From a phage, in sequence record PZ809289.1: a DNA stretch of 64,000 bases; one strand, 5' to 3'. The notes beneath the pieces were generated by a model. That model did not search any database, was not told where the DNA came from, and saw only the letters and a program-made list of their open reading frames with translations. Each line of letters opens with the position of its first letter. The stretch's first letter is position 1. Of this stretch, positions 1 to 15,908 are shown piece by piece. A program made the position numbers and the translations under genes.

Positions 1-123
1 GTCCCTAGTGATAAGCTTGCTAAATTGACTGGCTCTATCAATGAAAAAGGTGGCAAGGTCACGTTTTCTGCTGGCGGCATAGCCAATCTTAAAAAACTTT
101 TGAAAGCCGCTGGCGCTGAATAA
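1..123 (+). CDS. 3' end of an upstream gene (5'-truncated by window edge)
   Basis: Open frame from position 1 ending TAA at 121-123; directly precedes an internal-protein-like gene. Confidence 0.3.
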   Translation, partial: VPSDKLAKLTGSINEKGGKVTFSAGGIANLKKLLKAAGAE

Positions 124-124
124 A

Positions 125-397
125 ATGAAATCATACCAAGAATTTATCGCTGAATCTATTCTTAATGAGGAAGTAAAAATTAACAAATCTGTTAAGACTA
201 TGATTGATGATATAAATCATCTCTATAACATCGATTTGACTAATCACGTAACTTTAGGCAATAAGCGAAACTTTTTTGTTTTTGATACTTCAGAACTCGA
301 CCAGAATCAAATTAACAATATTGAACGTTTTGCTAATGAAAAAGGGTTGCGTCACGAAACAGCTGGTTATAAAAAGTATGCAATTTATCTAAAATAA
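125..397 (+). CDS. internal-protein-like protein with capsid targeting sequence
   Basis: N-terminus MKSYQEFIAES matches the T4 IP capsid-targeting sequence (MKTYQEFIAE); position upstream of tRNA cluster as for T4 ipI. Confidence 0.65.
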   Translation: MKSYQEFIAESILNEEVKINKSVKTMIDDINHLYNIDLTNHVTLGNKRNFFVFDTSELDQNQINNIERFANEKGLRHETAGYKKYAIYLK

Positions 398-464
398 TTG
401 TTTACAAGGTCTATAGGTGTGATACTATAGACCTATCAAAACAAATGAGTGATTGGAGAATAAA

Positions 465-650
465 ATGAAACGTTGTGAATTAATTAGAAATGTTACTGCA
501 CTGGTCGCCGTTACTGCTTTTGGCTTTAGTATGTTTGCAGGATTCATGCTCGATATGCTTTCAACTTCCGAGAATATAATCTCTTTAGTAGTGGCATTTT
601 TAATTGGTTCAATCTCTTTTGTTATGGATAAAATCTCTAAAGGTGAATAA
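465..650 (+). CDS. small hydrophobic membrane protein
   Basis: ATG 465 six nt after GGAG within promoter-cassette leader; track start 453 is TTG; hydrophobic 61 aa. Confidence 0.5.
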   Translation: MKRCELIRNVTALVAVTAFGFSMFAGFMLDMLSTSENIISLVVAFLIGSISFVMDKISKGE

Positions 651-1057
651 TGAACGTTGAATATTATGTATATGCGGATTATGAAAATAACCCGTCTAAA
701 GATGAAGATAACCGTTTAGGTGTAGATGCTTTTGAATCCCCTTCTGCAGCTTGGCAATGGGTTGAAAGTACTGATATCCCTTATCGTTATATTGAAGTGG
801 TAGACCAAGCAGGAAACAAGTATCCTAAGGAAGCATATGTTCCTTCTGGTAAAGTAAATTTCCTTCTGTTCGCAGGTGACAACTATTACCCACGTGGCGG
901 CTATACCGATTTAATCGCTAAAGCATTTTCTGAAGACGAACTACGTGATATTATTAACGAAAATGAGAAAAAGCCTCGTTACGGTTCTAATCGTTTTGAC
1001 TGTGACTGGTGGCAGATTGTTAATGCTAATACCCATACTATTGTAGACGAGGGTTAA
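650..1057 (+). CDS. hypothetical protein
   Basis: ATGA overlap with preceding gene; 135 aa ORF. Confidence 0.5.
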   Translation: MNVEYYVYADYENNPSKDEDNRLGVDAFESPSAAWQWVESTDIPYRYIEVVDQAGNKYPKEAYVPSGKVNFLLFAGDNYYPRGGYTDLIAKAFSEDELRDIINENEKKPRYGSNRFDCDWWQIVNANTHTIVDEG

Positions 1058-1348
1058 ATGCTATACGTTAAGGTTACTAATCCAGAGAATGGCTATAATT
1101 CAGACCAGGTTGCAGCAGAGCTACTGATTCGCAACTTTGGCAAAGGTGCTGTGCTTGATGTTCAACAGGTTAACATAGGTCGTAGTTCAAGCGATGTTAA
1201 ACTCAAAGTTAACAGCCATCGTTATAATTCTGTTAACTTTACTTTTTATACCGCAACTGAAAACGGATTGGTCGAATATGACATCTTTAAAAATCCTTTG
1301 AAGATTGCTTCTATTAAACTTGATTACATTAATATGTGGCCACAATGA
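1058..1348 (+). CDS. hypothetical protein
   Basis: ATG immediately after preceding stop with GAGGG upstream; 96 aa. Confidence 0.5.
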   Translation: MLYVKVTNPENGYNSDQVAAELLIRNFGKGAVLDVQQVNIGRSSSDVKLKVNSHRYNSVNFTFYTATENGLVEYDIFKNPLKIASIKLDYINMWPQ

Positions 1349-1527
1349 ATCAAATTTGACCAGACTATTCCTAAAAATAGTAATATGCTTTAAGAGTAAT
1401 GTGTTATTATTACTCTAACATTATTAAGTAACCCTCTATTACCAAAGGTTCTTCCCTCAAAGAACCTTTCATAATAGACAAGGTCTATTAATCAAACTTA
1501 CTTTACTTAATTTTATTTGAGGTGTTT

Positions 1528-1794
1528 ATGTTAGTATTAAAATTAGCTTTTTACGACCCAGAAACCAAGACAACAACTACCAAACGTTGTTCTATTTCAT
1601 ATGAATGTCAATTTGGCGAAGTTGAGACTGATGGCGAGCCCTTTATGGCAATTGCCGATAGCACATTCGCTAAACCAAAAATAATTCCACTAGTTAACGC
1701 TGCGGCTTATCTGGTTGCTCCTGAAGAAATGACTTATCATACAATTCAGCACATGGCTAAAGATGATAATGCTCCTGCTGGATTTGTAGTTTGA
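1528..1794 (+). CDS. hypothetical protein
   Basis: ATG 1528 after GAGGTG; ends 5 nt before tRNA; no recognisable motif. Confidence 0.35.
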   Translation: MLVLKLAFYDPETKTTTTKRCSISYECQFGEVETDGEPFMAIADSTFAKPKIIPLVNAAAYLVAPEEMTYHTIQHMAKDDNAPAGFVV

Positions 1795-1799
1795 TTTAA

Positions 1800-1870
1800 G
1801 GCCCTGTAGCTGGACGGTCGAGCGAGCGACTCATAATCGCTGGATGGTGGTTCGATTCCACCCAGGGCCA
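1800..1870 (+). tRNA. tRNA with CAT anticodon (Ile-lysidine type or Met)
   Basis: Cloverleaf by hand folding: acceptor GGCCCTG/CAGGGCC, anticodon stem AGCGA/TCGCT with loop CTCATAA, T-arm GGTGG-TTCGATT-CCACC; CCA not encoded. Confidence 0.75.
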
Positions 1871-1911
1871 TATTTTGAGAACATAAATACTCTTAGAAAT
1901 AGGAGATATTT

Positions 1912-2577
1912 ATGTTCCATTACACTTATAAAATAACAAACAAAATTAATAATAAAATCTATATAGGTGTCCATTCAACCGAAAATTTGAATGATGCATA
2001 TTTTGGTTCCGGTAAACTCTTGAAAAGGGCCCAGGCCAAATACGGTATAGAAAATTTCTCTAAAGAAATATTAGAGTTCTTTGACGATAAAATCTCTATG
2101 TTTGAGTCAGAAAAGAATATTGTGACTGAAGAGTTTTTAAAGCGCCCCGATGTTTATAATTTGAAATTAGGCGGTGAAGGTGGTTGGGACCATTTAAACA
2201 CCGAAGAATATTTAGATAAAAAGAAAGAAGCTTCCTTAAAAGGAGTTGCTGCTTTTAAAACCAGATTTGAGAACGACCCAGACCTTAAAGAAAAATATCG
2301 TAAAATGGGTTCAGAAAGGTTTAAACAACTTTGGGATAATCCTAAGTATAGAGAGAAATTTTCAAATACTAAATCTTTCTTGGGTAAGACCCATTCAGAT
2401 GAAACCAAAAATAAAATTAAAGAATCTCACGCCAGAAATAAACACCAACAAGGTGAAAATAATTCCGGATATGGAAAAATGTGGATTCATTCTTTAGAAG
2501 AAAAAGTTTCTAAACGTATTAACAAAACGGATATTATTCCTGAAGGTTGGAATAAAGGCCGTAAAATAAAATTTTGA
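1912..2577 (+). CDS. segB: GIY-YIG family homing endonuclease (segB-like, within tRNA cluster)
   Basis: N-terminal YTYKITNKINNKIYIGVHST (GIY..YIG), basic C-terminal DNA-binding repeats; sits between two tRNA genes as T4 segB does; SD AGGAG. Confidence 0.75.
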   Translation: MFHYTYKITNKINNKIYIGVHSTENLNDAYFGSGKLLKRAQAKYGIENFSKEILEFFDDKISMFESEKNIVTEEFLKRPDVYNLKLGGEGGWDHLNTEEYLDKKKEASLKGVAAFKTRFENDPDLKEKYRKMGSERFKQLWDNPKYREKFSNTKSFLGKTHSDETKNKIKESHARNKHQQGENNSGYGKMWIHSLEEKVSKRINKTDIIPEGWNKGRKIKF

Positions 2578-2582
2578 ATTAC

Positions 2583-2657
2583 GTCCCGCTGGTGTAATGG
2601 ATAGCATACGATCCTTCTAAGTTTGCGGTCCTGGTTCGATCCCAGGGCGGGATACCA
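2583..2657 (+). tRNA. tRNA-Arg (anticodon TCT)
   Basis: Acceptor GTCCCGC/GCGGGAT with encoded CCA, anticodon loop CTTCTAA, T-arm CCTGG-TTCGATC-CCAGG. Confidence 0.8.
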
Positions 2658-2659
2658 AA

Positions 2660-3036
2660 TGAAGACTATTATATAGTCAAGCCGTCGTATGAAGACTGAT
2701 TACCAGCATTCACCGGCGCAACAAACAAGAAACCGGGTCGCTACCGGTAAGTCGTCGGACTGATGTTCCCTGAGTAAGGACTGGCATTAACAAATCTTTA
2801 CGATCTGTTAACGTCCCCTTACATCACAGCAGAAACGGCGCACCGAATTATCGATTCGAGGAAATATCTTTGCCGTAAGCCGAGTAGCGTTTTTGACGGA
2901 ACGTTCGGATATGGTCGAGATATGGCCTTTTAAAAATATTGAGTGGCGTCAACTACTTAATAACCGGGTTCGAATCCCGGCGTTTCGTACAAACACTTGC
3001 CTAGCAGGTGGAACCCCGACAAGGTTACCCTAGGTT
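2660..3036 (+). ncRNA. ORF-free structured region downstream of tRNA-Arg; candidate stable small RNAs (T4 species 1/2 RNA position)
   Basis: About 380 nt with no ORF in any frame, GC-rich paired segments, a T-arm-like CCGGG-TTCGAAT-CCCGG element, ends at a terminator. Confidence 0.3.
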
Positions 3037-3038
3037 AA

Positions 3039-3068
3039 AGGCCCTTCCGAAAGGTTGGGCCTTTTTTG
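3039..3068 (+). terminator. intrinsic terminator (hairpin plus T-run)
   Basis: GGCCCTTCC-GAAA-GGTTGGGCC followed by TTTTTT. Confidence 0.6.
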
Positions 3069-3076
3069 TATAAATA
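3069..3076 (+). promoter_or_regulatory. T4-type late promoter TATAAATA
   Basis: Exact TATAAATA about 28 nt upstream of ATG 3104. Confidence 0.45.
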
Positions 3077-3103
3077 TGTAGTTAAACTAACCTAGGAAAT
3101 AAT

Positions 3104-3658
3104 ATGAAACTTTTAAAATATTTGAGTTGGGTACTGTTGGTTCCTCTAGATTTTATCTCTATGGTTCTGGCTGTTATCCTTGCACCATTTGTGGTTCCTT
3201 TCCACAATAAAAAGACCGGTAAATTGCCTTATGGCTTTGATTGGATGATGACATACGATAATCCAATTGACGGTGACAAAGGTCATATTAAACGTTGGGC
3301 TAAAATCAGGAAAATGCCAGGTGGTGTTTATCTCCAGAGAGTAGCCTGGTTATGGCGAAATAAAGCTTATAACTTTGCTTATCATAAACTTGGACGCGAT
3401 TGTAGTTCGGAATTCCATTATCGTGGTAATCCTGACGTAGAATCAGGTTCTCCTGATAAAGCTCATCATGGGTGGCTATGGATGTGGAATGACGACGCCT
3501 GGGGTGTATTTGCTTCAGTTCCTTATCTTAAGGTTGGTGGAATCACATTTTACCTTCGAGTGTACTGTGGCTGGAAGCTTAAAAGTCTTTTGTCTCGTAA
3601 AATCCCTAAGGCTATGTTAGCCTTCCACATAAACCCATTCCGGTTCTACAAGAACTGA
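3104..3658 (+). CDS. membrane protein, unknown function
   Basis: SD AGGAAA; N-terminal hydrophobic segment; flanked on both sides by the same terminator sequence. Confidence 0.6.
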   Translation: MKLLKYLSWVLLVPLDFISMVLAVILAPFVVPFHNKKTGKLPYGFDWMMTYDNPIDGDKGHIKRWAKIRKMPGGVYLQRVAWLWRNKAYNFAYHKLGRDCSSEFHYRGNPDVESGSPDKAHHGWLWMWNDDAWGVFASVPYLKVGGITFYLRVYCGWKLKSLLSRKIPKAMLAFHINPFRFYKN

Positions 3659-3663
3659 TTCTA

Positions 3664-3693
3664 GGCCCTTCCGAAAGGTTGGGCCTTTTTTTG
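3664..3693 (+). terminator. intrinsic terminator (repeat of the 3039 terminator)
   Basis: Same GGCCCTTCCGAAAGGTTGGGCC hairpin followed by T7. Confidence 0.6.
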
Positions 3694-3716
3694 TTTCTAA
3701 AAGGTTTAAAAAAGAT

Positions 3717-3745
3717 GTTTACTCTTTCGTAGAACATGATACTAT
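3717..3745 (+). promoter_or_regulatory. early promoter cassette (GTTTAC-N17-TACTAT)
   Basis: GTTTAC 3717-3722, TACTAT 3740-3745, conserved AGACCTATCAA downstream. Confidence 0.6.
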
Positions 3746-3780
3746 AGACCTATCAAAACAACAGAGTGAAGGAGAGTAAA

Positions 3781-4044
3781 ATGGATAATTATGGTGAAGT
3801 GTTTAATTTCTTTATGAAATGCGTTCCTGAAGAATTTGGTGCTACTGTTAACGATATTAAAGTTATCGGCCCTGAACACCCGGTGTATGAAACCTATGCA
3901 GTAATGGGTAATGAAGATGGACAGTGGTATACAATTAAAGTTGTGATTAATATGTTCTCAGCTGAAGGTTACGCCAAATCGTCTACCAAAGTTTACCATG
4001 GTAATGATTTTGATGCAGAAAATTATTTCAATAATATGAAATAA
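3781..4044 (+). CDS. hypothetical protein
   Basis: ATG 3781 after GGAGAG; track start 3766 is GTG. Confidence 0.5.
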   Translation: MDNYGEVFNFFMKCVPEEFGATVNDIKVIGPEHPVYETYAVMGNEDGQWYTIKVVINMFSAEGYAKSSTKVYHGNDFDAENYFNNMK

Positions 4045-4047
4045 AAC

Positions 4048-4077
4048 GTTTACATGGGCTCATGATTAAGATATTAT
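4048..4077 (+). promoter_or_regulatory. early promoter with inverted repeat flanking -10
   Basis: GTTTAC 4048-4053, TATTAT 4072-4077, palindrome ATGGGCTCAT...ATGAGCCCAT. Confidence 0.5.
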
Positions 4078-4102
4078 GAGCCCATAATTTGAGGAGAACA
4101 TA

Positions 4103-4501
4103 ATGAATATCGAAGATAAAGAAATGCAAGAGTTGTATAATTCATTAACACCTGAACAACAAAAATATGCCAAAGAACTAGAGAAAGCTCTTACTTTCAA
4201 CTTGGCAAAAACTGATTGGGCCGCTATGTATGAAGAAAAAACTAGATTAGAACTTGAAGCCGTCGAAAGAAATGAATGGATTGTCGAAACCAAGATTTCT
4301 GATGGTGGTTGCTCTGTTGAGGTGTCAGCTGTAGTTAAAGGTACTCATGGTGAAAAATCATGGGGCTGGCATAATGAAGCAAACAAACATATTGTTCTCT
4401 CAACGTCAAAAACTTATGGCCAAAGGGCTCCTGTATCCAAAGCTATTATTAAGCAAGCTCAATGGGAAGCCAATGAAATTTGCCTCGCAAAAATGAAATA
4501 A
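4103..4501 (+). CDS. hypothetical protein
   Basis: SD GAGGAG 7 nt upstream; 132 aa. Confidence 0.55.
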   Translation: MNIEDKEMQELYNSLTPEQQKYAKELEKALTFNLAKTDWAAMYEEKTRLELEAVERNEWIVETKISDGGCSVEVSAVVKGTHGEKSWGWHNEANKHIVLSTSKTYGQRAPVSKAIIKQAQWEANEICLAKMK

Positions 4502-4504
4502 AAT

Positions 4505-4534
4505 GTTTACAAACCTCAGAGGACAGGGTATAAT
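4505..4534 (+). promoter_or_regulatory. early promoter (GTTTAC / TATAAT)
   Basis: GTTTAC 4505-4510, TATAAT 4529-4534 inside palindrome GAGGACA...TGTCCTC. Confidence 0.5.
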
Positions 4535-4577
4535 GTCCTCATGGATTACAAAACGTTAACCAACTGAAGGAAATACT

Positions 4578-5171
4578 ATGAACACTTTAAAGAAAATCGT
4601 TGAATTCATCCGTTCTAAACTGGGTACTGCAATGGCTCAGAACCTGTCAATCGAAGACCAGTATACTAAAGCTGCTTCTACCCTGATTGATAAAATCACT
4701 GAACTCCAGACTGCTCATGTTAAGTCTGTGAATGAAGAAAAACGTATTCGTGCGTTGGCTAATGAAAAAGACCAACTGGCTGCTTCTAAAGAACGTGAAA
4801 TTCGTAAACTGATTGCCGAAGGCGCTGATGTCCAGGTACATGCTAAACTTGGCCTCCTTTATCGTCGTACAGCTACTCAGCTTCGTAAGAAAGCTGATGA
4901 TTATATCGAAATGCGTAATGAAATTAAACTGAAGGTTAAGGAACTTGATGACTCTCGTCAGGAACTGGCTGTTAAGCTCGAGTACATCCGTGAAACTCGT
5001 AATATGGCTGCCCTTGGTATTGCTACTGCCGATGATGTTGTTGAAATCGCTGCACTGACTAAGATTGATATTGAAGACACCCTACTGCGTGTAGAAACGT
5101 TTAAAGGCCCGCAAGTTGGAATGGATACGACTTCTGCCGATATCGACGACTACATTAATTCACTTAAGTAA
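4578..5171 (+). CDS. coiled-coil protein (PspA/IM30-like architecture, speculative)
   Basis: 197 aa, heptad-rich Lys/Glu/Arg sequence throughout; SD GGAAA. Confidence 0.55.
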
Positions 5172-5178
5172 TGTTATT

Positions 5179-5201
5179 GGGAGACTTCGGTCTCCCTATT
5201 T
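5179..5201 (+). terminator. possible terminator or RNA stability hairpin
   Basis: GGGAGAC-TTCG-GTCTCCC followed by TATTT (weak T-run). Confidence 0.3.
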
Positions 5202-5219
5202 GGAGGAGAGGAGAATATT

Positions 5220-5756
5220 ATGAGTTTATATGATAACCTTATATCAAATATTGATTGGTTTAAAAATAGTGGTCTTTCCCATGAAACCAATGCAGTTCTT
5301 TATAGAATTCGCCAAGACCTAGGCTATTCAAACGATTTCTTAAGCAGAACATCTAGCCGTGGCGATACTACCAAATTACCTTTTATTTTTGCTTTAGCTG
5401 AAGACCTTTCTTTTGAAGATGCTTTGGAAATTATTGACGTAAATCTGGCTATTCAACGAGTGGAATTCGCTGGACTACGTTATTCAGTATATTCTTTAAA
5501 CGAGAGCGCTGATTGTGTGCTTCTTAATATGGCAGACGATGATTACCATTTAGTATGCTATGTAGCTTTAGAAAATGGTGATGTATTTGGAATGGTTGAC
5601 CGTCGCCCATCTTACTCTGATATTAAAAATTACGATAAAGATGAGCTTATTATTTTGGCTAATGAGTACACATTAGAAAGTCGTAAACAACAACGTAAGC
5701 TTAATCGTTTTATTGCTGAATGTCGCGAATACGCTAAAGAGGTTCAAAATGCATAA
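5220..5756 (+). CDS. hypothetical protein
   Basis: Strong SD GGAGGAGAGGAG; 178 aa; C-terminal region contains NRFIAECR motif shared with two other genes. Confidence 0.6.
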   Translation: MSLYDNLISNIDWFKNSGLSHETNAVLYRIRQDLGYSNDFLSRTSSRGDTTKLPFIFALAEDLSFEDALEIIDVNLAIQRVEFAGLRYSVYSLNESADCVLLNMADDDYHLVCYVALENGDVFGMVDRRPSYSDIKNYDKDELIILANEYTLESRKQQRKLNRFIAECREYAKEVQNA

Positions 5757-6102
5757 GCCTAGTAAAACCGACCCTGGTTACGCATTAGCAGATTACGATA
5801 TCTCTATTTCATTATTCCTCGGCATTGCTACTAGTATGACTGCAGGGATAATTGGATTTCTTGTCGGTGGGATTATTAATGGTATGCCTCGCCATCCGTT
5901 TGAAGATATGAGCCTCGCGTGGATTTGGGTTCCGGCTTTAATAGGATTTTTTATCCCATGGGTCTTTGATATTGCCCAAACTAATAAAATAAACAAGCCA
6001 CGTAAAAAGAGATATGCTTTAGCTATGGCTAATTATAATGAGTATGTAAAACAAACTAAACGTAATGACCTTGAAACCTTTATTAAGGAATGTAAATCAT
6101 GA
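5749..6102 (+). CDS. membrane protein
   Basis: ATG 5749 overlapping upstream stop, SD AAAGAGG; two hydrophobic helices; C-terminal ETFIKECKS. Confidence 0.5.
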   Translation: MHKPSKTDPGYALADYDISISLFLGIATSMTAGIIGFLVGGIINGMPRHPFEDMSLAWIWVPALIGFFIPWVFDIAQTNKINKPRKKRYALAMANYNEYVKQTKRNDLETFIKECKS

Positions 6103-6389
6103 ATAAAATTGAAATTGAAATCCCGGAACACAATGACGAGAAATCTGCAGAAAAGGCTATCTATGCTCTTCTGAATAAAGTGAATACCATCGAACATGAA
6201 TGTGAAGCTATTGCCGATAAGTATGGTATCCAATTCGGTACTGGTGATTATGGTTCAGGCCGTACATATTATCCTGTCGGTTATGAATGCTCCCAGTGGT
6301 TTAAAGATGAAATTGAAAACAACGGTGGTGAAGTTGAAAATGGCGTCGTTACAGTTGGTGCTTGGATCTCCTCTTCGGCAATGTGCTAA
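6099..6389 (+). CDS. small acidic protein, member 1 of a tandem paralog array ending in C-terminal Cys
   Basis: ATGA overlap; ends GAWISSSAMC; shares ADKYG core with next gene. Confidence 0.6.
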   Translation: MNKIEIEIPEHNDEKSAEKAIYALLNKVNTIEHECEAIADKYGIQFGTGDYGSGRTYYPVGYECSQWFKDEIENNGGEVENGVVTVGAWISSSAMC

Positions 6390-6398
6390 GGAAATTTT

Positions 6399-6680
6399 AT
6401 GATGAATGATTACCATAAAAATAAAGAGCTGGCTGACGCAGTAAATGATATCCACAAAGCTATTCGTCGTGCTGAGGAAATTGCTGACAAATATGAGACT
6501 CATTTTAATATATACCCTGCTCGCGGTATGGGCGGTGACTATTATTCTCCTGGCGCCTTGAAAGCCGACCTTGCCCACTGGGAAGAATACGGTGAAGCTC
6601 AGTACGCTATTGTAAACCAACATGATTACACTACCAGCCTAGAAAATGGTGGTTGGGTGTCCTCTTCTTCTGAATGTTAA
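6399..6680 (+). CDS. small acidic protein, paralog 2
   Basis: SD AAGGAAA; ends GGWVSSSSEC. Confidence 0.6.
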   Translation: MMNDYHKNKELADAVNDIHKAIRRAEEIADKYETHFNIYPARGMGGDYYSPGALKADLAHWEEYGEAQYAIVNQHDYTTSLENGGWVSSSSEC

Positions 6681-6689
6681 GGAAATAAA

Positions 6690-6902
6690 ATGACTATTGA
6701 TGAAATTGAAAACCAAATCCGTGAATTAGTACGTAAAGGCCAGTCTGTGGCTGACGAAACGGGTGAAGAGTTCCGTGTTTCTGGTCGTGGAGAATACATT
6801 TCTCCAAAGAACCCGGAATATGATGATTACGAATGGGTCCGTGATGACTACGGTATTCCGGAAGGTGAAGGTTTCTGGTTTACATCCTCTATGTCTTGCT
6901 AA
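6690..6902 (+). CDS. small acidic protein, paralog 3
   Basis: SD AAGGAAA; ends GFWFTSSMSC. Confidence 0.6.
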   Translation: MTIDEIENQIRELVRKGQSVADETGEEFRVSGRGEYISPKNPEYDDYEWVRDDYGIPEGEGFWFTSSMSC

Positions 6903-6913
6903 GGTGATAAAAA

Positions 6914-7138
6914 ATGTCTGATATTAATGAATTAGAAAAAGCTGCACTTGAACTGGCTGCACTGTATAAGAAAGTAAAAGATATGGCTTCTGCTCAAAGT
7001 TTTGGTGTTGAGCTCGACGATTATGACGGTGAAGTTCGTCTCGAAGATTGGCTGAATAGCTCGTGTTATGGCGAAGAAGCTGGTCGCACCTTCGTTGCTC
7101 GGGCCGATGGTAAAATCTGGTATCCGAGCTCATGCTAA
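6914..7138 (+). CDS. small acidic protein, paralog 4
   Basis: SD AAGGTGA; ends KIWYPSSC. Confidence 0.6.
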   Translation: MSDINELEKAALELAALYKKVKDMASAQSFGVELDDYDGEVRLEDWLNSSCYGEEAGRTFVARADGKIWYPSSC

Positions 7139-7359
7139 AATTAAAGAAAAGATACATTCGTAAAATAAATGGTCTTCGCGATTATGCCAAAGGTTGGCCG
7201 TTAAGTATTATTATGGCTGATAGACACCCGCGTTATAATACTGAGATGACTTATTACAAAAAGTACGATTCATATTGTCGGTCTAAAGCAGGTCGTTTAG
7301 ATGGTTCTTATGAAGACTATTTCGGTAAAAAACCTACTCGTATTTCGTTAGGAAAATAA
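7132..7359 (+). CDS. hypothetical basic protein
   Basis: ORF overlapping preceding stop; 75 aa. Confidence 0.4.
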   Translation: MLKLKKRYIRKINGLRDYAKGWPLSIIMADRHPRYNTEMTYYKKYDSYCRSKAGRLDGSYEDYFGKKPTRISLGK

Positions 7360-7389
7360 TTTAACCACATGGATGTGGTAGGAGGACTT

Positions 7390-7719
7390 ATGCATAAAGA
7401 TTCAGTATTCAAATATCTTTTGAAAACAAATAAAGAATTCTATATGAATGGACAGGCCTTCTTGTTCGTTCGTGGTAAACGTGAGATGTTTTACAAATGC
7501 GACCTCTCAATGCACCATCATATGTATCACACCCGCGGTGAGCCTATACTGGGGTTCTCTGGTGACGAGACTAGACACATAGCTATGTACTACGACCATT
7601 TTAAGCTCAATGATTGTGGTGACAACGCTTTGGTCTGGAACCCGTCTTGGCGTCGTTGGGATACAGTAGACAATGATAAATTATTTTTAGAATATTGCAG
7701 AAGTGATGTACAACTCTAG
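7390..7719 (+). CDS. hypothetical protein
   Basis: ATG 7390 four nt after GGAGG; His/Cys-rich. Confidence 0.5.
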   Translation: MHKDSVFKYLLKTNKEFYMNGQAFLFVRGKREMFYKCDLSMHHHMYHTRGEPILGFSGDETRHIAMYYDHFKLNDCGDNALVWNPSWRRWDTVDNDKLFLEYCRSDVQL

Positions 7720-7762
7720 AAAATCATGTTACTATTACCCTACACAAACATGAGGAGAACAT

Positions 7763-8002
7763 ATGTGGTATTACGCTCCGATGTCCGATAAGTCTAATGA
7801 ACCGGTACGCATTACTCGCGCCAAGTTTAAAAAGATTTATGGCTTCTCTTATAAGAAGTCTGATTACGGTGTTCGTTTTGAAGATGCCCACTGTATCAAT
7901 GACCCTTATGCTGAAGAAATCTCTAATGAGATAATTCCTATCATTAAGAATAATTCTGATGATATGTGGGAATTGCATAACGATTACGTCGCTGAAATTT
8001 AA
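7763..8002 (+). CDS. hypothetical protein
   Basis: SD GAGGAG; 79 aa. Confidence 0.5.
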   Translation: MWYYAPMSDKSNEPVRITRAKFKKIYGFSYKKSDYGVRFEDAHCINDPYAEEISNEIIPIIKNNSDDMWELHNDYVAEI

Positions 8003-8021
8003 GTTTACTGAGGAAAATATT

Positions 8022-8981
8022 ATGATGTTAGTTATTGGTTCTCGTGCACTGCACCACGCTGGTCTGATTGAAAGTAAGCATATCGAAAATTCTGATTGGG
8101 ATTTCATTGCCGACCAAGGCTCATGGAATCACTTTAAAGCACGTATGTTCGGCGCCCATGTACACGTTGACAATCCTGATGTCCAGGCTTTCAAATGTAT
8201 GCATAATGGTAAAGAAACCTATTTTGAAGCTTATATCGTTCGTGCTCTGACTAACGTACGAGAAATTACCGGTGAGCTTCAAGACGAAGATTTCACTTCA
8301 AGCTATCGTCTCCTGAAATATGCTGAAAATCATATTAAAAAGGACCGTCTTACTGGTTTCTATTGGGCCACCCCTGATATCTGTCTGGCTATCAAAACCT
8401 CTCATCGTTTCCTTAAGAATAATCCGTTCTTCTTGAAAACCATGTCCCACATCAAATACCTTCGTAATAAAGGTATCACCCTTAACGAAGAACTCCAGGA
8501 AATTATGTTGCAACGTCAAAAAGAAACGTTGAGCTATTCCCACCCTAAATTGGATGTAAACAAATCATCGTTCTTTAATGATACCATTTATACGCTGGAC
8601 CATGACTCTATTCATGAAGCAGTGGCATTGGCAGGGCGCCCTGCATATACCTTTTATATGAAGGAAGGTTCTGAAGTCATGACCTCTCGTGAGAAGTTCG
8701 AGGCTTTGCCTGAAGCTATTAAACTGGCTGGTGTATATGAAGAAACTTGTGTCCTGGCACTAGAACGTTCACAGGTTCCTAATGACTTCAATATTTCACC
8801 ATCATTAAGTTTTTATATGGCTCTTGAGAAAGTGTGTACCTCAATCACTTCAGGTTGGTTCCGCGAGTACGCCTGGGAAAACTACCAAGCTGTAGTGAAT
8901 ATGTATAAGACTTTAGGTGAAAACGACTACATTGAACGGTTTAAGCGTAACCAACATTTAATTCGTCCTTTCGAAAAATAA
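8022..8981 (+). CDS. putative nucleotidyltransferase-fold protein
   Basis: ATG 8022 after GAGGAAA; N-terminal IGSRALHHAGLIESKHIENSDWDFI resembles minimal NTase G-S...D-x-D motif, later HVHVD; about 320 aa. Confidence 0.45.
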   Translation: MMLVIGSRALHHAGLIESKHIENSDWDFIADQGSWNHFKARMFGAHVHVDNPDVQAFKCMHNGKETYFEAYIVRALTNVREITGELQDEDFTSSYRLLKYAENHIKKDRLTGFYWATPDICLAIKTSHRFLKNNPFFLKTMSHIKYLRNKGITLNEELQEIMLQRQKETLSYSHPKLDVNKSSFFNDTIYTLDHDSIHEAVALAGRPAYTFYMKEGSEVMTSREKFEALPEAIKLAGVYEETCVLALERSQVPNDFNISPSLSFYMALEKVCTSITSGWFREYAWENYQAVVNMYKTLGENDYIERFKRNQHLIRPFEK

Positions 8982-8993
8982 TTGCACAAAACA

Positions 8994-9022
8994 GTGTACA
9001 AGGTCTATAGGTGTGATACTAT
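8994..9022 (+). promoter_or_regulatory. early promoter cassette (near-identical copy of the 400-428 cassette)
   Basis: GTGTAC 8994-8999, TACTAT 9017-9022, palindrome AGGTCTATAG/CTATAGACCT. Confidence 0.55.
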
Positions 9023-9059
9023 AGACCTATCAAAACAACAGAGTGAAATGGAGAATAAA

Positions 9060-9272
9060 ATGAAACTTTCTAACCAAGCAATCAACATGTTAAACGAAGT
9101 TCGTGCAGCTGGTGCTAAATGCCTGATGGTTAACACTCGTGACGGTGACCTTCGTCAAGCATTTGGTGAATTGAAATCTGCTGACCTGGTTAAATGTTCA
9201 GTTGGTATTGGTAACGCACTTCGTGTATCCTTATCTCCTAAAGGTAAAATGTACTTTTTCAACAAAAAGTAA
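9060..9272 (+). CDS. hypothetical protein
   Basis: ATG 9060 six nt after GGAG; leader identical to the leader of gene 465-650. Confidence 0.5.
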   Translation: MKLSNQAINMLNEVRAAGAKCLMVNTRDGDLRQAFGELKSADLVKCSVGIGNALRVSLSPKGKMYFFNKK

Positions 9273-9286
9273 GTGAGGAAAATATT

Positions 9287-9973
9287 ATGAACGGTCCGAA
9301 AACTTTTAATTCTAAAGCTCGTGCAGTAGGTGGTTTTGCAGGTCATATTTCTAATGATGATATTAAAAACGAGCCTATGTTCTTTAACTGTGATTTGAAT
9401 TTTGCTGCACAAAATGGTGGTCCTATTACTCGTAGCTTTATTACTAATCTCCCTGATGAGTGGAAAGCCGTTGAATGCGTATTTGATTCCCGTGTACACA
9501 TGTTAATGCCCGGCTGGTACCCTGCAATTCCAGGCTTCCACCATGATGATGTACCCCGTCCGGATATTCCGGTTGGTCAACACTTTATTACCGCAGGGCA
9601 ACCTGATTATGATAATCCTCGATACCATTCTGAACATATTCTTGGTCTTGTTAACGCTGATGTGTGTCCTACTCATTTTGCAACCGGAACTGCCCAGTTC
9701 AGTCAGATTCCTGAAGGCGAACTTATCTATCGCCAGTGGCATAAAGAAGTTCTGGAAAAAATTGAGTCTAATGAATTAACTAAGTGGGATGCTCCTGACC
9801 GCACGTTGCTCCAGTTTGATTGGCAGACATGGCATACAGGTTCTCGTGCAGTAAGTAACGGTTGGCGCTGGTTTGGTCGTGTGTCTCGTAATACAGACCG
9901 TGTTAAAAAGATTACAAATGAAATCCGCGTTAATGCTCAAGTATATCTGGAATTTCCTATGGAGGGCTGGTAA
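9287..9973 (+). CDS. putative 2OG-Fe(II) oxygenase-like protein
   Basis: FHHDD (HxD), distal His in WHTGS and RWFGRVS (RxS) in the order expected for the 2-oxoglutarate dioxygenase fold; SD GAGGAAA. Confidence 0.45.
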   Translation: MNGPKTFNSKARAVGGFAGHISNDDIKNEPMFFNCDLNFAAQNGGPITRSFITNLPDEWKAVECVFDSRVHMLMPGWYPAIPGFHHDDVPRPDIPVGQHFITAGQPDYDNPRYHSEHILGLVNADVCPTHFATGTAQFSQIPEGELIYRQWHKEVLEKIESNELTKWDAPDRTLLQFDWQTWHTGSRAVSNGWRWFGRVSRNTDRVKKITNEIRVNAQVYLEFPMEGW

Positions 9974-10566
9974 TGGCCCTTTATGAACCTGGATGTATGG
10001 GTATTGATACAAACTTCATCCGTCGGTCGGAAAATGCCGGAATTATTATCCCAAGTGGTGAACATATGATTATTAAAAAGTCCTGGCGAAATATCGATGA
10101 CGGTGATGAAGGAATTTCAGCCAGTACAATAGATTGGTCAGGTTGTACTGCCGAAATGAAACAGCTTTTAATTGAGGAGTTCAGAATGGGTTATATCGTA
10201 AATGGTTGGCAACCGGTAAAGAAAATCACCCGCACTGACGATAAGTATATTTGTCTCCAAGATGGAAAGGCTAAGCTCATTGATACTGAATGGCTTACGT
10301 TCGGACGATATGTTGTAGCGTATTTTATTACTTTACTTCCAATGATAGTGTTGAGTTCATTTTTAATCGACGCCAATTGGAATGATGCGCTAGAACGAAC
10401 TATTATTGGTGCGGGATTAATGAACCTTTTCACCGCTGGAGCTGCTTTAAGTATTTGGTGCTTGGCTATTGAAATGCCATGGCGTTTACGTCGTCAACAA
10501 CGTCTTTACGACGAAGGTAAAAACAAACATAATTTAAATGAGTTTATTAAGGAATGCCGTAAATGA
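9973..10566 (+). CDS. membrane protein
   Basis: TAATG overlap; hydrophobic helices; C-terminal NLNEFIKECRK. Confidence 0.55.
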   Translation: MALYEPGCMGIDTNFIRRSENAGIIIPSGEHMIIKKSWRNIDDGDEGISASTIDWSGCTAEMKQLLIEEFRMGYIVNGWQPVKKITRTDDKYICLQDGKAKLIDTEWLTFGRYVVAYFITLLPMIVLSSFLIDANWNDALERTIIGAGLMNLFTAGAALSIWCLAIEMPWRLRRQQRLYDEGKNKHNLNEFIKECRK

Positions 10567-10799
10567 GTATTGCAATTTATATTAAATCTGAGTCATGTGA
10601 TTCTTATCTGTATTCCTATGATACCGGAACGTCAGAAGAGAAAATCAAAGAAGATTTAGAAAGCGACTTGGGTATGTTCTGTCCTATTGGTGACTATATG
10701 CTTCAAGTGTCTGATAGTGAAAGTCCATCATCAGAAAATAGACTTCAAATTATTATGCAAGATATTTTTAAACAATCATGGGAACGAGACGATGAGTAA
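10563..10799 (+). CDS. small acidic protein
   Basis: ATGA overlap; 78 aa. Confidence 0.4.
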   Translation: MSIAIYIKSESCDSYLYSYDTGTSEEKIKEDLESDLGMFCPIGDYMLQVSDSESPSSENRLQIIMQDIFKQSWERDDE

Positions 10800-11241
10800 G
10801 AAAGCTAAGGAATTATCGGCAGGTATTTTGTTCATGACCGTTGATAAAGAACTGGTCATGGGTCGTGTAACAGGCTCTCGTAATCCAGAGAACATGCGTC
10901 ATAAATGGGACATTCCTAAAGGCCATGTCGAACCAGGCGAAGAGCCTATTCAAGCGGCAATGCGCGAAACCGAAGAAGAGATTGGATTCACAGCATACGA
11001 TCCTGCATTCCTGAAAGACCTAGGTGAGTTCAAATATTCAAGCAATAAGAATCTACATCTGTTCTTATATACGGTGCCTGTGGAACACGAGCAGTTCAAG
11101 GATTGCAAATGTACGGCTTACCATACGTTCCCTGATGGTCGTACTATTCCTGAATTCGATGCTTTTGCCTTGATTAAACGTCCGCAATGGGAATATGTCA
11201 TGGGCCCGTCGATGTTTAAGGTTTTAGATTCGCTCTTTTGA
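10792..11241 (+). CDS. nudE: Nudix hydrolase NudE
   Basis: Nudix box GHVEPGEEPIQAAMRETEEEIG; immediately upstream of lysozyme e as T4 e.1; ATG 10792 chosen over track start. Confidence 0.8.
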   Translation: MSKKAKELSAGILFMTVDKELVMGRVTGSRNPENMRHKWDIPKGHVEPGEEPIQAAMRETEEEIGFTAYDPAFLKDLGEFKYSSNKNLHLFLYTVPVEHEQFKDCKCTAYHTFPDGRTIPEFDAFALIKRPQWEYVMGPSMFKVLDSLF

Positions 11242-11249
11242 TATAAATA
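11242..11249 (+). promoter_or_regulatory. late promoter TATAAATA upstream of lysozyme gene
   Basis: TATAAATA followed by hairpin ACCTCCT...AGGAGGT that contains the SD of e. Confidence 0.6.
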
Positions 11250-11271
11250 CCTCCTATACTCAGGAGGTATT

Positions 11272-11766
11272 ATGGATATTTTTGATATGTTACGCCTTGA
11301 TGAAGGCTGTAAATTAGACTTATATAAGGATACTGAGGGATACTATACTATTGGTATTGGCCAATTGATTACTAAGAATCCTTCTAAAGATGTTGCTCGG
11401 GCTGAACTTGATAAGCTTATGGGCCGGGTTTGTAACGGACGTATTACTATGGCTGAAGCCGAACAACTTTTTAACAGGTCGGTTGAAAATGCTCGTAGAG
11501 CTATTCTGCGTAATCCTAAATTGAAACCTGTTTATGATGTACTGGACGAAGTTCGTCGTTGTGCTTTAATTAACATGGTATTCCAAATGGGTGAAGCAGG
11601 TGTAGCTGGGTTCACTAACTCTTTACGTATGCTCCAACAGAAACGTTGGAATGATGCGGCAGTTAACCTGGCTCAATCCCGTTGGTATAAACAAACCCCT
11701 AATCGTGCTAAGCGCGTGATTTCTACATTTAAAACAGGTACTTGGAAAGCATATGAAAACTTATAA
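11272..11766 (+). CDS. e: T4-type lysozyme (endolysin) e
   Basis: 164 aa, near-colinear with T4 lysozyme ([22 protein letters not shown]..., catalytic E11/D20/T26 region conserved). Confidence 0.95.
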
Positions 11767-12151
11767 TGAATTTATCGCAGAGAATGTAATTCCTGCATCT
11801 AAAGAACTTTTGGCAATGTTCGAATCTGAAGAGTTCACTGAAGAACTGAATGAGAATCTGACCCAGGCCACTCCTCAGGTTATTCGCGTTCGTAATGCCC
11901 TTCAGACAGGCATGCAGGCTCGCGTCTCTAAGACTATGAAGCTGGCCTTCACCACTTCTAAAAATGAAGACTACGGTGATGGTATTGCAATGAACACTGG
12001 ACAGTATTATGTTGAGTGGAATGGCGAAACCGGTACTGCTAAGATTCGCCAAACCAGAGCAGCGGGTGGTAAAATGTTGGACATTAAACTGAACGTTAAA
12101 GAGAAAGACGTCGCGGCTTTGTTCAAGAATTGGATGAAGACCTATAAATAA
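11753..12151 (+). CDS. internal-protein-like protein with capsid targeting sequence
   Basis: Starts [11 protein letters not shown]; position of T4 ipIII; start overlaps stop of e. Confidence 0.7.
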
Positions 12152-12180
12152 GTTTACATCTCCTAGAATTGTGATAGTAT
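12143..12180 (+). promoter_or_regulatory. tandem late (TATAAATA) and early (GTTTAC...TAGTAT) promoters
   Basis: TATAAATA 12143-12150 immediately followed by GTTTAC 12152-12157 and a -10-like TAGTAT. Confidence 0.5.
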
Positions 12181-12233
12181 ATCTACAGTTACTTGAACAG
12201 ACCAATTAAAATATTTTCCTTTAAGGAACCCGT

Positions 12234-12830
12234 ATGAAAACGTATAAAGAATTTATCGCCGAAGCTTCTGTAGGAAAGGTCCAAGGCATTAATAAAGATG
12301 AGTGGACTTACAAAGGAAACGGCGTTGACAACCCAGGAAACGGTTTTGACGCTAAAACAGCTCCTATTGAACGGTACTTGGCTACAAAAGCTTCCGACTT
12401 TAAAGCTTTCGCCTGGGAAGGACTTCGCTGGCGTAACGACCTAAATATTGAAGCTGATGGACTTAAATTTGCCCATATCCAAGATGTTGTTGCTAGTAAC
12501 TTGGACGCAGCTTTTGTTAAAGCTGACGGTGACCTTCGTCGCTGGAATTTAAAACTGTTCTCTAAACAGAAAGGTCCTGTATTTGTACCTAAAGCAGGTA
12601 AATGGACTATTGATAATAAATTGGCTAAAGCAGTTAACTTCGCTGGTCTTGAATTTGCCAAGCATAAATCCGCATGGAAAGGTCTTGATGCAATGACTTT
12701 CCGTAAAGAATTTGCCGATGTTATGGCTAAAGGCGGCTTTAAGGCAGAAATAGATACCTCTAAAGGTACGTTTAAAGACGCTAATATTCAGTACGCTTAC
12801 GCCGTTGCTAATGCAGCCCGTGGTAATTAA
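12234..12830 (+). CDS. internal-protein-like protein with capsid targeting sequence
   Basis: Starts MKTYKEFIAEAS; 198 aa, Lys/Ala-rich; between e and denV like T4 ipII/ipIII. Confidence 0.7.
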   Translation: MKTYKEFIAEASVGKVQGINKDEWTYKGNGVDNPGNGFDAKTAPIERYLATKASDFKAFAWEGLRWRNDLNIEADGLKFAHIQDVVASNLDAAFVKADGDLRRWNLKLFSKQKGPVFVPKAGKWTIDNKLAKAVNFAGLEFAKHKSAWKGLDAMTFRKEFADVMAKGGFKAEIDTSKGTFKDANIQYAYAVANAARGN

Positions 12831-12854
12831 TAAAGCCGATACTTGATAAAAGTT

Positions 12855-12883
12855 GTTTACATCTCCTGTAGTCATGATACTAT
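12855..12883 (+). promoter_or_regulatory. early promoter cassette with flanking inverted repeat
   Basis: GTTTAC 12855-12860, TACTAT 12878-12883; ATCTCCTGTAG 12861-12871 pairs with CTACAGGAGAT 12895-12905 (contains SD). Confidence 0.6.
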
Positions 12884-12910
12884 AGACCTATCAACTACAG
12901 GAGATTAAAA

Positions 12911-13318
12911 ATGACTCGTATCAACCTTACCTTAGTATCTGAATTGGCTGACCAACACTTAATGGCTGAATATCGTGAATTACCACGTGTTTTCGGTGCA
13001 GTTCGTGAACGTATTGCCAAAGGGCAAGGCTTCTCTGATATCCCTAAAGACTTCCGCCTTGGTTCAGGGCACGTCAAGTTCTTTTATGACAAAATTGGTT
13101 TTTTGTTCTTGCGACAAAATGCAATAATTGAGGAACTTCTGAAGCGTGGTTACCAGATTCAAAATACCCATGTAGACGTAGCGGATATTCCATTACGGCT
13201 TATGAACGATTTCACTCCAACCGAAGCTGATATAGCTTTAAGCCAAGCTCGTCTGGATGAAAAAATTGCACAGCGTCCTACCTGGTACAAACATTATGGC
13301 AAGGCTATTTACGCTTAA
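12911..13318 (+). CDS. denV: endonuclease V (pyrimidine dimer DNA glycosylase) DenV
   Basis: Starts [32 protein letters not shown], essentially the T4 DenV N-terminus; C-terminal [15 protein letters not shown]. Confidence 0.95.
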
Positions 13319-13361
13319 TTAAATCCGTGATAGAATACTTCTATCAACTTAAGGAATAACA

Positions 13362-13661
13362 ATGAAAACTTATCAAGAATTTATCACAGAAGCCAAAGCT
13401 CCTAAAGCATTTCAAATTGGAGTTCAAGGCAATTTAGACCAAGAATATGTTGATGCTATTGTAGCAAGCCTCGGTAAACAGGGCGTACAAGTCGATTTTG
13501 TTGATTTTACCAAAGGTAATACTTTTAATATTGTTACATCTAAAGGTTCTTTAGCTAAAGTTAAAAAGGCCTTTGGCGTAGCACAAGCATATGAAATCGA
13601 CCACTCCGAATTAGAAAATAAAGGTCGCCAGAACACAATTAGAGGTTCTGGTTCTTTCTAA
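13362..13661 (+). CDS. internal-protein-like protein with capsid targeting sequence
   Basis: Starts MKTYQEFITEA; 99 aa. Confidence 0.65.
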   Translation: MKTYQEFITEAKAPKAFQIGVQGNLDQEYVDAIVASLGKQGVQVDFVDFTKGNTFNIVTSKGSLAKVKKAFGVAQAYEIDHSELENKGRQNTIRGSGSF

Positions 13662-13765
13662 TAAAGGCAAGCCGGCCCTCTCCTCATGAACGTCTAGTCC
13701 TCTGGGTGATGAACCCAAGGATGAATTATGTGCCAAGGATTAGTCCATAACTTAAAGAGTCAAAA

Positions 13766-14125
13766 ATGAAAACATATCAGCAATTTATTACTGAATCTAC
13801 CCAACGTATTAACGAAGCTATGTCGCCTGAACAGTTGGCTAAAGCTAAAGAAGGCCTGAACCCATCTGAAGTTTTTAAAGTTACAGGTAAAGACTTTGCT
13901 TCTATGGCCACTAACCAAAGCCTGGCTAAAGAACTTAAATCTAAATCTAACTTCATTCATGCTACATGGAATGGTGATTCTCTTACTTCAATAAGTGTGT
14001 ACAATAAAAAAGGTCTCCTTAAGAGTTCTTATGGCGCGGATGCCATCCGTGTTTCTAAATCAGATTGGCATAAAAACACTACTAAAGCAGAAAAACCTCA
14101 TAACCCGGCACTAGACCATCTTTAA
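13766..14125 (+). CDS. internal-protein-like protein with capsid targeting sequence
   Basis: Starts MKTYQQFITEST; 119 aa. Confidence 0.65.
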   Translation: MKTYQQFITESTQRINEAMSPEQLAKAKEGLNPSEVFKVTGKDFASMATNQSLAKELKSKSNFIHATWNGDSLTSISVYNKKGLLKSSYGADAIRVSKSDWHKNTTKAEKPHNPALDHL

Positions 14126-14133
14126 GGCTTAAT

Positions 14134-14391
14134 ATGAAAACTTACCAAGAATTTATTACAGAATCCACTTTAGTTTCTAAACGTTGGAATATGATTGTAA
14201 ACGTTAAACCTTCCGGCACTGAAGTTTCTATGGCCGACCCTAATGATGACGAACTTGAGCACGCTTTTAGCTCTAAAGAAACTGACGAGAAAGTGGTTAA
14301 GCAACTGGTTGCTGATGCAGATCAACTTCGTAAAGTAGCAGATGTTGTTAAGCTGTTTACTAAGAAAGGTTTTAAACACGAAGAACGTTAA
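14134..14391 (+). CDS. internal-protein-like protein with capsid targeting sequence
   Basis: Starts MKTYQEFITEST; 85 aa. Confidence 0.65.
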   Translation: MKTYQEFITESTLVSKRWNMIVNVKPSGTEVSMADPNDDELEHAFSSKETDEKVVKQLVADADQLRKVADVVKLFTKKGFKHEER

Positions 14392-14540
14392 TTAGCATTT
14401 TAAATGGGAGCAACCTGGACCTCACAATTCTGTGAGGGACTCCCGCCAACCTGTAATAAGGTCGAGCCCAAGTGCGGTAATGGGTAAATGCAGAAAGGGA
14501 CGAATTAATGTGCCAAGGAACGGCCCTCAAAGGAAATACT

Positions 14541-15847: not shown

Positions 15848-15851
15848 AGCA

Positions 15852-15880
15852 GTTTACATCTCCTGTAGGTATGATACTAT
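15852..15880 (+). promoter_or_regulatory. early promoter cassette with flanking inverted repeat
   Basis: GTTTAC 15852-15857, TACTAT 15875-15880, arms ATCTCCTGTAG / CTACAGGAGAT. Confidence 0.6.
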
Positions 15881-15908
15881 AAACCTATCAACTACAGGAG
15901 ATTACAAA

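Follow-up and report, generated by a model that had tools for sequence, protein, structure and literature searches.

Genes with the T4 capsid-targeting leader in a Dhakavirus: shuffled arrays of candidate injected anti-restriction proteins

Within a 64,000-nucleotide stretch of phage DNA (sequence record PZ809289.1, in the following referred to as the window), six genes encode proteins with nearly the same ten N-terminal residues. This start resembles the capsid-targeting sequence (CTS, or leader) of the T4 internal proteins (Ips) IPI, IPII and IPIII, and an earlier note on this DNA interpreted the six genes as an enlarged arsenal of co-injected anti-defence effectors. This raises the question whether they are genuine internal-protein genes, how they were assembled and which host systems their products would counteract. 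It is considered likely that they represent T-even ip genes whose products are packaged by means of the CTS, processed and injected, most likely function as inhibitors of GmrSD-type enzymes and are encoded in shuffled arrays. This interpretation builds on what was observed here, namely the motif, its loci, the homologies, purifying selection, cassette permutation and breakpoints located in the CTS.

Leader-bearing genes at the two internal-protein loci

Exactly six open reading frames (ORFs) on the + strand start with MK[ST]Y[QNK][EQ]FI[AT]E, and translation confirmed the coordinates given in the earlier note. These are 125–397 (leader MKSYQEFIAE), 11753–12151 (a leader fitting the pattern), 12234–12830 (MKTYKEFIAE), 13362–13661 (MKTYQEFITE), 13766–14125 (MKTYQQFITE) and 14134–14391 (MKTYQEFITE). 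The first and third of them encode Ip9 and IpIII, respectively; the remaining genes, otherwise without a name, were given the working names B132, C99, D119 and E85 according to the length of their products. When all six frames of the 64 kb were searched by regular expression for a relaxed motif, no further ORFs emerged, and the degenerate back-translated DNA pattern matched six times compared to 0.00 matches expected from 100 dinucleotide-preserving shuffles. Moreover, Tyr4, Phe7, Ile8 and Glu10, representing positions for targeting or cleavage in T4 IPIII, are invariant in all six leaders. The claim that the cargo domains behind the leader are mutually unrelated was likewise confirmed, since they form six separate clusters with no pairwise BLASTP match at E<1e-3.

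The window originates from a Dhakavirus, a member of the JS98-like genus of T4 relatives within the Tevenvirinae. Its closest match is Salmonella phage vB_SalD_ABTNLS3 (96%), followed by WG01, QL01, JS10 and JS98. As deduced from synteny with T4, JS98, ABTNLS3 and QL01, all six genes are housed in the two ip loci of T-even phages, one extending from 57B to the tRNA genes and the other from e via denV to vs.8. Along the + strand of the window, which runs opposite to the standard T4 map, the gene order is [57B side] Ip8' - Ip9 - trna.4 ... tRNA-Met - GIY-YIG - tRNA-Arg ... nudE - e - B132 - IpIII - denV - C99 - D119 - E85 - vs.8. Three leader-bearing genes indeed follow denV (12911–13318), as previously described. 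However, only B132 and the IpIII gene are located between the lysozyme gene e (11272–11766) and denV; the gene at 125–397, formerly counted among those flanking lysozyme and denV, occupies the T4 ipI position, approximately 11 kb further upstream.

The identification of the leader as the T4 CTS is supported. The genes occupy both known ip loci, and they include an IpIII orthologue and, besides the truncated Ip8 described below, members of the Ip9 and Ip7-like families. The IpIII orthologue (12234–12830, +; 198 aa) shares 87% identity over 187 residues with T4 IPIII (E 2e-119) and matches phrog_5341, annotated as 'internal virion protein' (E 4e-115). Ip9 (125–397, +; 90 aa) matches phrog_7673 'internal head protein' (E 5e-56), and the corresponding genes of related phages are annotated as 'Ip9 gene product' in QL01 and 'similar to RB15 and K3 Ip9' in IME08. 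C99 (13362–13661, +; 99 aa) belongs to the Ip7 family and was found in 284 phage records; it matches phrog_2667 'internal head protein' (E 7e-43) and is approximately 50% identical to Ip7 of T2 and RB32. An assignment of C99 to IPII was rejected in favour of the Ip7 relationship, as BLASTP of its mature part against T4 IPII remained without a significant match at E values up to 10. Comparison with the T4 Ips by BLASTP revealed neither an IPI nor an IPII orthologue in the window.

At the ipI position, a seventh CTS gene is cut by the window edge. Positions 1–123 (+) comprise the last 40 codons and the stop codon of Ip8, and the visible translation, VPSDKLAKLTGSINEKGGKVTFSAGGIANLKKLLKAAGAE followed by the stop, agrees in every residue with the C-terminal part of QL01 gp142 ('Ip8') and of an ORF of LQ5. 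In QL01 and LQ5, the full-length protein consists of 74 aa and starts with MKTYQEFITEAKRHED (MKTYQEFITE). As judged from these sequences, the source phage probably possesses at least seven leader-bearing genes.

B132, D119 and E85 are proposed internal proteins without such named relatives. B132 (11753–12151, +; 132 aa) bears the CTS and starts 14 nt ahead of the e stop codon, i.e., the two genes overlap. It matches phrog_15461, a PHROG without assigned function, and has homologues in 50 phage records originating from Dhakavirus, Klebsiella, Serratia and Erwinia phages; the designation 'hypothetical protein' was found in 30 of the 30 records listed. In 11 of 11 homologues aligned, the most distant at 56% identity, the B132 leader is invariant. 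The 20 residues behind the cut site, in contrast, vary more than any other part of the protein and are missing from distant homologues, as would be expected of a linker. A weak match to M.HhaI (E 0.01), which would have made B132 a target-recognition domain of a C5-cytosine DNA methyltransferase, was dismissed for lack of sequence or fold support.

D119 (13766–14125, +; 119 aa; CTS MKTYQQFITE) matches phrog_3966 (E 4e-26), again a PHROG without assigned function. A word-indexed protein search retrieved only its own cluster; tblastn against phage genomes was more informative and identified homologues in 90 records, of which 25 were listed (22 'hypothetical protein', three unannotated). RB69ORF123c is a relative at approximately 34% identity. 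A similarity of D119 to PDB entry 9hnh_A (E 4e-4) was rejected, since it is confined to a short helical repeat of an unnamed chain and seems to reflect composition. E85 (14134–14391, +; 85 aa; CTS MKTYQEFITE) is rare: of 50,697 phage records, 7 contain it, and no more than two clusters at 50% identity exist among 1.84 billion representatives. The PHROG search returned no match past its leader, and its 56%-identical relative likewise starts with MKTYQEFITES.

Among the records listed, none applies an internal-protein name to B132, D119 or E85, and the annotated ones read 'hypothetical protein'. The three were set apart by record annotation and not by the original 1994 numbering, and one of them may match an old Ip number. 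Searches of all six proteins against Pfam, NCBIfam and PDB sequences yielded nothing above noise.

All six ORFs are under purifying selection, with codon changes relative to sister-phage orthologues being overwhelmingly synonymous. Synonymous to nonsynonymous changes amounted to 45:4 for B132 compared with JS98, 14:0 for D119 compared with WG01 and 13:0 for IpIII compared with LHE83, with 16:0 as a further example; for Ip9, 4–9 synonymous changes were accompanied by 1–2 nonsynonymous ones. The leader itself is selected at the level of the peptide and not of the nucleotide sequence, because its amino acids are conserved while synonymous sites diverge: the six leaders have only 20 invariant nucleotides in common.

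Permutation of cassettes and crossover sites

In order to compare cassette content, the interval from e to vs.8 was analyzed for nine Dhakavirus sequences, including the window, and for T4. The window carries B132, IpIII, denV, C99, D119 and E85, and ABTNLS3 features B132, IpIII, IpII, denV, D119 and E85. The order is B132, IpIII, IpII, denV, D119, C99 in AnYang; B132, IpII, denV, D119, C99 in KIT01; B132, IpIII, denV, D119, E85 in WG01; and B132, IpIII, denV, C99 in QL01. JS98 harbours IpIII, B132, denV and C99, LHE83 harbours IpIII, IpII, denV and C99, and 04086 retains denV, D119 and E85; in T4, the interval consists of IpIII, IpII and denV. Accordingly, the nine Dhakavirus intervals represent nine distinct cassette combinations or orders. 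No single phage record spans window positions 12700–14450 in one piece, and the cassette set of the window therefore constitutes a new mosaic of known parts.

Three junctions provide direct evidence for crossovers located within the CTS. For Ip9, the upstream flanks of the window and ABTNLS3 are unrelated, the difference extends into the first four codons (MKS versus MKT), and the aligned sequence shown is identical from codon 5 onwards. Furthermore, D119 of AnYang possesses leader DNA of the C99 type (MKTYQEFITE), whereas the window and four other D119 carriers encode MKTYQQFITE. Finally, the 3' end of D119 together with the following ribosome-binding site is continued by E85 in the window and WG01 or by C99 in AnYang and KIT01, with divergence directly past the leader. 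The leader serves as a recombination site in addition to its predicted function as packaging signal. Module shuffling as suggested in the earlier note was hence observed between genomes, but not as a recent event linking the last two genes of the array. D119 and E85 have the peptide module MKTYQ.FITEST in common, but at the DNA level 7 of 36 positions are different, with six of these changes being synonymous, and the shared leader is therefore regarded as an old sequence kept by selection on the peptide and not as a recent copy.

Further landmarks were found outside the coding sequences. A full, GC-rich copy of a spacer of approximately 150 nt precedes vs.8 (14392–14540, +). Its 3' two-thirds are conserved whichever cassette comes before, and the right-hand crossovers of cassette swaps likely take place there. 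Between C99 and D119 (13662–13765, +), the spacer occurs a second time, with an internal deletion and with a residual piece of the vs.8 start (ATGTGCCAAGGA), as deduced from a blastn piece map and from alignment with the C99–vs.8 and E85–vs.8 spacers of QL01, WG01, AnYang, LHE83 and JS98. This copy is read as a recombination scar marking the joining of C99 to the D119–E85 pair. The vs.8 spacer was rejected as a structured RNA (folding z -0.09, +0.20 and -1.26; no Rfam match) and for this reason is treated as a recombination landmark only.

Moreover, an early-promoter/stem-loop direct repeat (GTTTACA...TGATACTATAGACCTATCAA), resembling the early-promoter/stem-loop (PeSL) elements of T4-like phages, occurs in six copies at 394–456, 3711–3773, 8988–9050, 12146–12208, 12849–12911 and 15846–15908. 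The copy upstream of denV (12849–12911, +) served as the reference of the family; it contains TTTACA-N16-TACTAT within the inverted repeat CTCCTGTAGT/ACTACAGGAG and is present in many copies in related phages. The copy at 15846 likewise lies inside an inverted repeat. The copy at 394–456 is located directly 3' of Ip9 (+), and the same element lies upstream of Ip8 in LQ5. Taken together, the early-promoter repeats bracket the Ip8–Ip9 module, IpIII and the block from denV to vs.8. Their -35/-10 sequences fit the PST/T4 consensus TTTACW-N17-TAYWAT known from PeSL-mediated shuffling (Arbiol 2010; Comeau, Arbiol & Krisch 2014); unlike in that system, many of the breakpoints observed here lie inside the coding CTS or the vs.8 spacer and not at promoter repeats. 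According to the proposed model, content and order of the two cassette arrays (57B to tRNA; e to vs.8) would be reshuffled by homologous recombination at short shared sequences; putative sites are the 30-nt CTS, the repeats with early promoter and stem-loop, and the vs.8 spacer.

Several further features of the window were recorded. Two forms of denV occur in the genus. One allele (96–100% amino acid identity) is shared by the window, ABTNLS3, LHE83 and 04086; JS98, WG01, QL01, AnYang and KIT01 carry the other, which is only approximately 69% identical to it, the same distance as for the T4 gene. An ORF of 184 aa (3104–3658) is flanked by a perfect, terminator-like hairpin repeat of 29 nt (AGGCCCTTCCGAAAGGTTGGGCCTTTTTT; 3039–3067 and 3663–3691) and looks like another bounded cassette. 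Between tRNA-Met and tRNA-Arg (window 1800–2657), an ORF for a GIY-YIG (segB-like) homing endonuclease was found (1912–2577); since JS98 and IME08 possess a contiguous Met-Asn-Arg array at this position, tRNA-Asn is considered missing in the phage of the window. In addition, four small paralogous ORFs are arranged in tandem (6099–6389, 6399–6680, 6690–6902 and 6914–7138), each of them ending with W-x-[STP]-S-S-x(0-2)-C.

Packaging, delivery and the choice of target

By analogy with T4, packaging, cleavage, injection and anti-restriction activity are proposed for the encoded proteins. The ten-residue CTS (MK[TS]Y..FI.E) would bind each protein into the scaffolding core of the prohead, and the prohead protease gp21 would cleave past Glu10 (I-x-E). 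The mature protein of 75–188 residues would then remain in the head alongside the DNA and enter the host together with it. Because it would be delivered with the DNA, an injected protein could act ahead of all phage gene expression. Its most likely role would be the stoichiometric inhibition of host nucleases attacking hypermodified DNA, i.e., type IV enzymes of the GmrSD type, with one cargo per enzyme variant. In T4, the first ten residues of IPIII were reported to suffice for packaging of foreign proteins, with residues 4 and 7 involved in targeting and residues 8 and 10 in cleavage (Mullaney & Black 1996). T4 IPI* inhibits GmrSD, Ip2 and Ip3 each inhibit a different GmrSD variant without cross-protection, and it was proposed that all proteins of both ip loci target GmrSD variants (Silas et al. 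2025). The IpIII orthologue of the window probably blocks a GmrS1/GmrSD2 (ECOR17-type) system, a prediction based on its 87% identity to T4 Ip3, the inhibitor of the ECOR17 GmrSD system.

The DNA to be protected probably differs from that of T4. Between imm and uvsX, a cluster for cytosine hypermodification of the RB69 type (arabinosylation) was identified (47079–51223, +), comprising homologues of JS98 orf38–42, which are similar to RB69 orf047c/048c/045c/051c/052c (90–99% identity, tblastn). Since T4 gene 42 and the gene for beta-glucosyltransferase are replaced by this cluster, the phage DNA is predicted to be arabinosylated rather than glucosylated. Arabinosylation of the RB69 type has been predicted for Dhakaviruses in the literature, and GmrSD is known to cut such DNA as well. 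In the annotated relative JS98, no alpha-gt gene is located between gp47 and gp55.

Several observations weigh against the interpretation as packaged inhibitors of GmrSD-type enzymes. When ip4–10 were assayed against 15 GmrSD groups, no reproducible pairs were obtained (Silas 2025; T2, T4 and T6 served as phages in the published screens), and GmrSD targeting is thus established for Ip1–3 only. Given the probable arabinosylation, the relevant restriction enzymes may also differ. A search of the literature yielded neither virion proteomics nor N-terminal data on this phage or on Dhakavirus, and gp21 and the scaffold genes are located outside the 64-kb window, in which dda is the last gene identified; the protease and the scaffolding core belong to the core genes of Tevenvirinae. 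Directly upstream of Ip9, C99, D119 and E85, the late-promoter consensus TATAAATA is absent and only early-type promoters (13308–13336) were detected, implying that late synthesis of these four proteins would need read-through. Exact matches to the late consensus precede e (11242–11249, +) and IpIII (12143–12150, +, overlapping the early-promoter repeat at 12146–12208), and the one at 11242 probably also serves the overlapping B132. Finally, AlphaFold models were of low confidence for B132 (pLDDT 53) and E85 (pLDDT 64), and fold searches with both models returned generic small alpha/beta folds or nothing.

These promoter data bear on a very improbable explanation for B132, D119 and E85, according to which the MKTYxEFIxE start is merely a shared module for translation initiation and recombination and the products are early cytoplasmic proteins that are never packaged. 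An early-type promoter upstream of C99 and the following genes, the absence of a late consensus directly upstream of D119 or E85, the function of the CTS as a crossover site and the missing internal-protein label among the records listed are compatible with this explanation. However, a mere DNA module does not account for a leader peptide that is conserved while synonymous sites have diverged, as between D119 and E85, nor for intact targeting and cleavage residues in all copies and in distant homologues. In addition, the first ten residues suffice to package unrelated proteins in T4, and B132 overlaps e, a gene with a late promoter. If the proteins are packaged, they might still play a mainly physical role inside the head, for instance by neutralising charge, condensing DNA or assisting in ejection, without any specific defence target. 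With pI values of 8.8–9.5, four of the six mature proteins are basic like T4 IPII and IPIII (9.6), the T4 head holds approximately 1000 Ip molecules embedded in DNA, and no GmrSD partner emerged for ip4–10. This role is nevertheless regarded as improbable: Ip9 (pI 6.8) and E85 (pI 6.1) are near neutral or acidic, strong purifying selection acts on the specific sequence of each cargo, which would be needless for a generic polycation, the presence of individual cargos varies freely among sister phages, and all three T4 Ips are specific GmrSD inhibitors.

A less remote possibility, albeit still an unlikely one, is that the proteins are injected anti-defence or host-takeover effectors of which some are not aimed at type IV restriction of the GmrSD type, but at other DNA-sensing defences, at nucleases acting on arabinosylated cytosine or at host functions needed immediately after injection. 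The outcome for ip4–10 can also be read in this way, as can the RB69-type modification cluster in place of glucosyltransferase genes. Furthermore, approximately 55 unrelated CTS cargo clusters in a partial sample of the IMG/VR database are more than one target family obviously needs. On the other hand, all three Ips of known function hit GmrSD, the diversity of GmrSD could absorb many inhibitors, and DNA of the RB69 type is restricted by GmrSD, too. The co-injected anti-defence effector remains the best reading of these genes, as put forward in the earlier note, whereas the notion of something novel or unusual could not be upheld, since diverse CTS-bearing Ips have already been published.

Relation to known internal proteins and significance

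Compared with the three genes of T4, the arsenal of the window is enlarged as previously stated, but it is not enlarged within the genus. Sister Dhakaviruses harbour two to five leader genes in the e-to-vs.8 interval alone and, in genomes for which both loci were inspected, approximately five to seven in total. ABTNLS3 possesses six (32 kb compared), JS98 five in the region compared and QL01 five strict matches genome-wide. AnYang features five in the e-to-vs.8 interval and two annotated 'putative internal head proteins' where it matches window positions 1–700, and its total is therefore probably seven. Seven genes including Ip8 represent the top of the sampled range, which is a matter of degree; the number is high, not exceptional. 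When IMG/VR was searched for the strict DNA pattern, 105 stretches and 165 different proteins bearing the leader were obtained. If the six proteins of the window are included, they group into the approximately 55 cargo clusters mentioned above, among which some metagenomic singletons on short contigs may be chance matches.

Compared with the T4 proteins IPI, IPII and IPIII, every leader of the window matches MKTYQEFIAE of IPII and IPIII at 8–9 of 10 residues and features the same I-x-E. The same two genomic loci are occupied, and the proteins are likewise small and mostly basic. In contrast, five of the six cargo domains are without detectable similarity to any T4 Ip, seven genes stand against three, and the DNA is probably arabinosylated and not glucosylated. 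The Ip7, Ip8 and Ip9 proteins of T2, RB15, RB32 and K3 also resemble those of the window, with the Ip8/Ip9 tandem at the ipI locus, as annotated in QL01 and IME08, and with unrelated cargo behind a common leader being swapped among phages; they differ in that the Ip7-like gene of the window resides in the denV–vs.8 locus and not in the ipI locus. DarA, DarB and Hdf of P1 and the internal proteins of T7 also provide head-packaged, DNA-delivered protection ahead of gene expression. However, these are unrelated proteins with other packaging signals, and their targets are type I restriction-modification systems instead of type IV enzymes.

Polymorphic ip loci with a common leader were described early (Repoila et al. 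1994), at least 10 Ips have been reported, and leader-bearing Ips were described as a diverse set of defence proteins sharing only the CTS (Rao & Black 2010; likewise Kuhn & Thomas 2022, Comeau 2014). As Ips are defined by their leader, homology of the cargo to a named Ip is not strictly required. The concept of shuffled injected Ips is thus already published, and the present observation is real and largely ordinary. New aspects are three leader-tagged cargo families left as 'hypothetical' in the listed records, a new cassette combination and clean crossovers within the leader. A rather unlikely reading is that B132, D119 and E85 constitute three previously unrecognised families of injected effectors with targets other than the GmrSD variants already mapped.

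Since the general principle has been established before, the gain is incremental. The leader represents a cheap and reliable label for proteins injected by a T4-like phage, and every such protein of known function disarms a host restriction enzyme. Re-annotation of B132, D119 and E85 as candidate injected anti-defence proteins provides a short testable list, which is of relevance for host-range prediction and for the choice or engineering of therapeutic phages for E. coli, Salmonella and Shigella. If the three were new effector families, they could counteract defences that act specifically on phages with arabinosylated cytosine, or entirely different immediate-early defences, and the ip arrays of Dhakaviruses would represent a ready catalogue of new leader-tagged anti-defence proteins.

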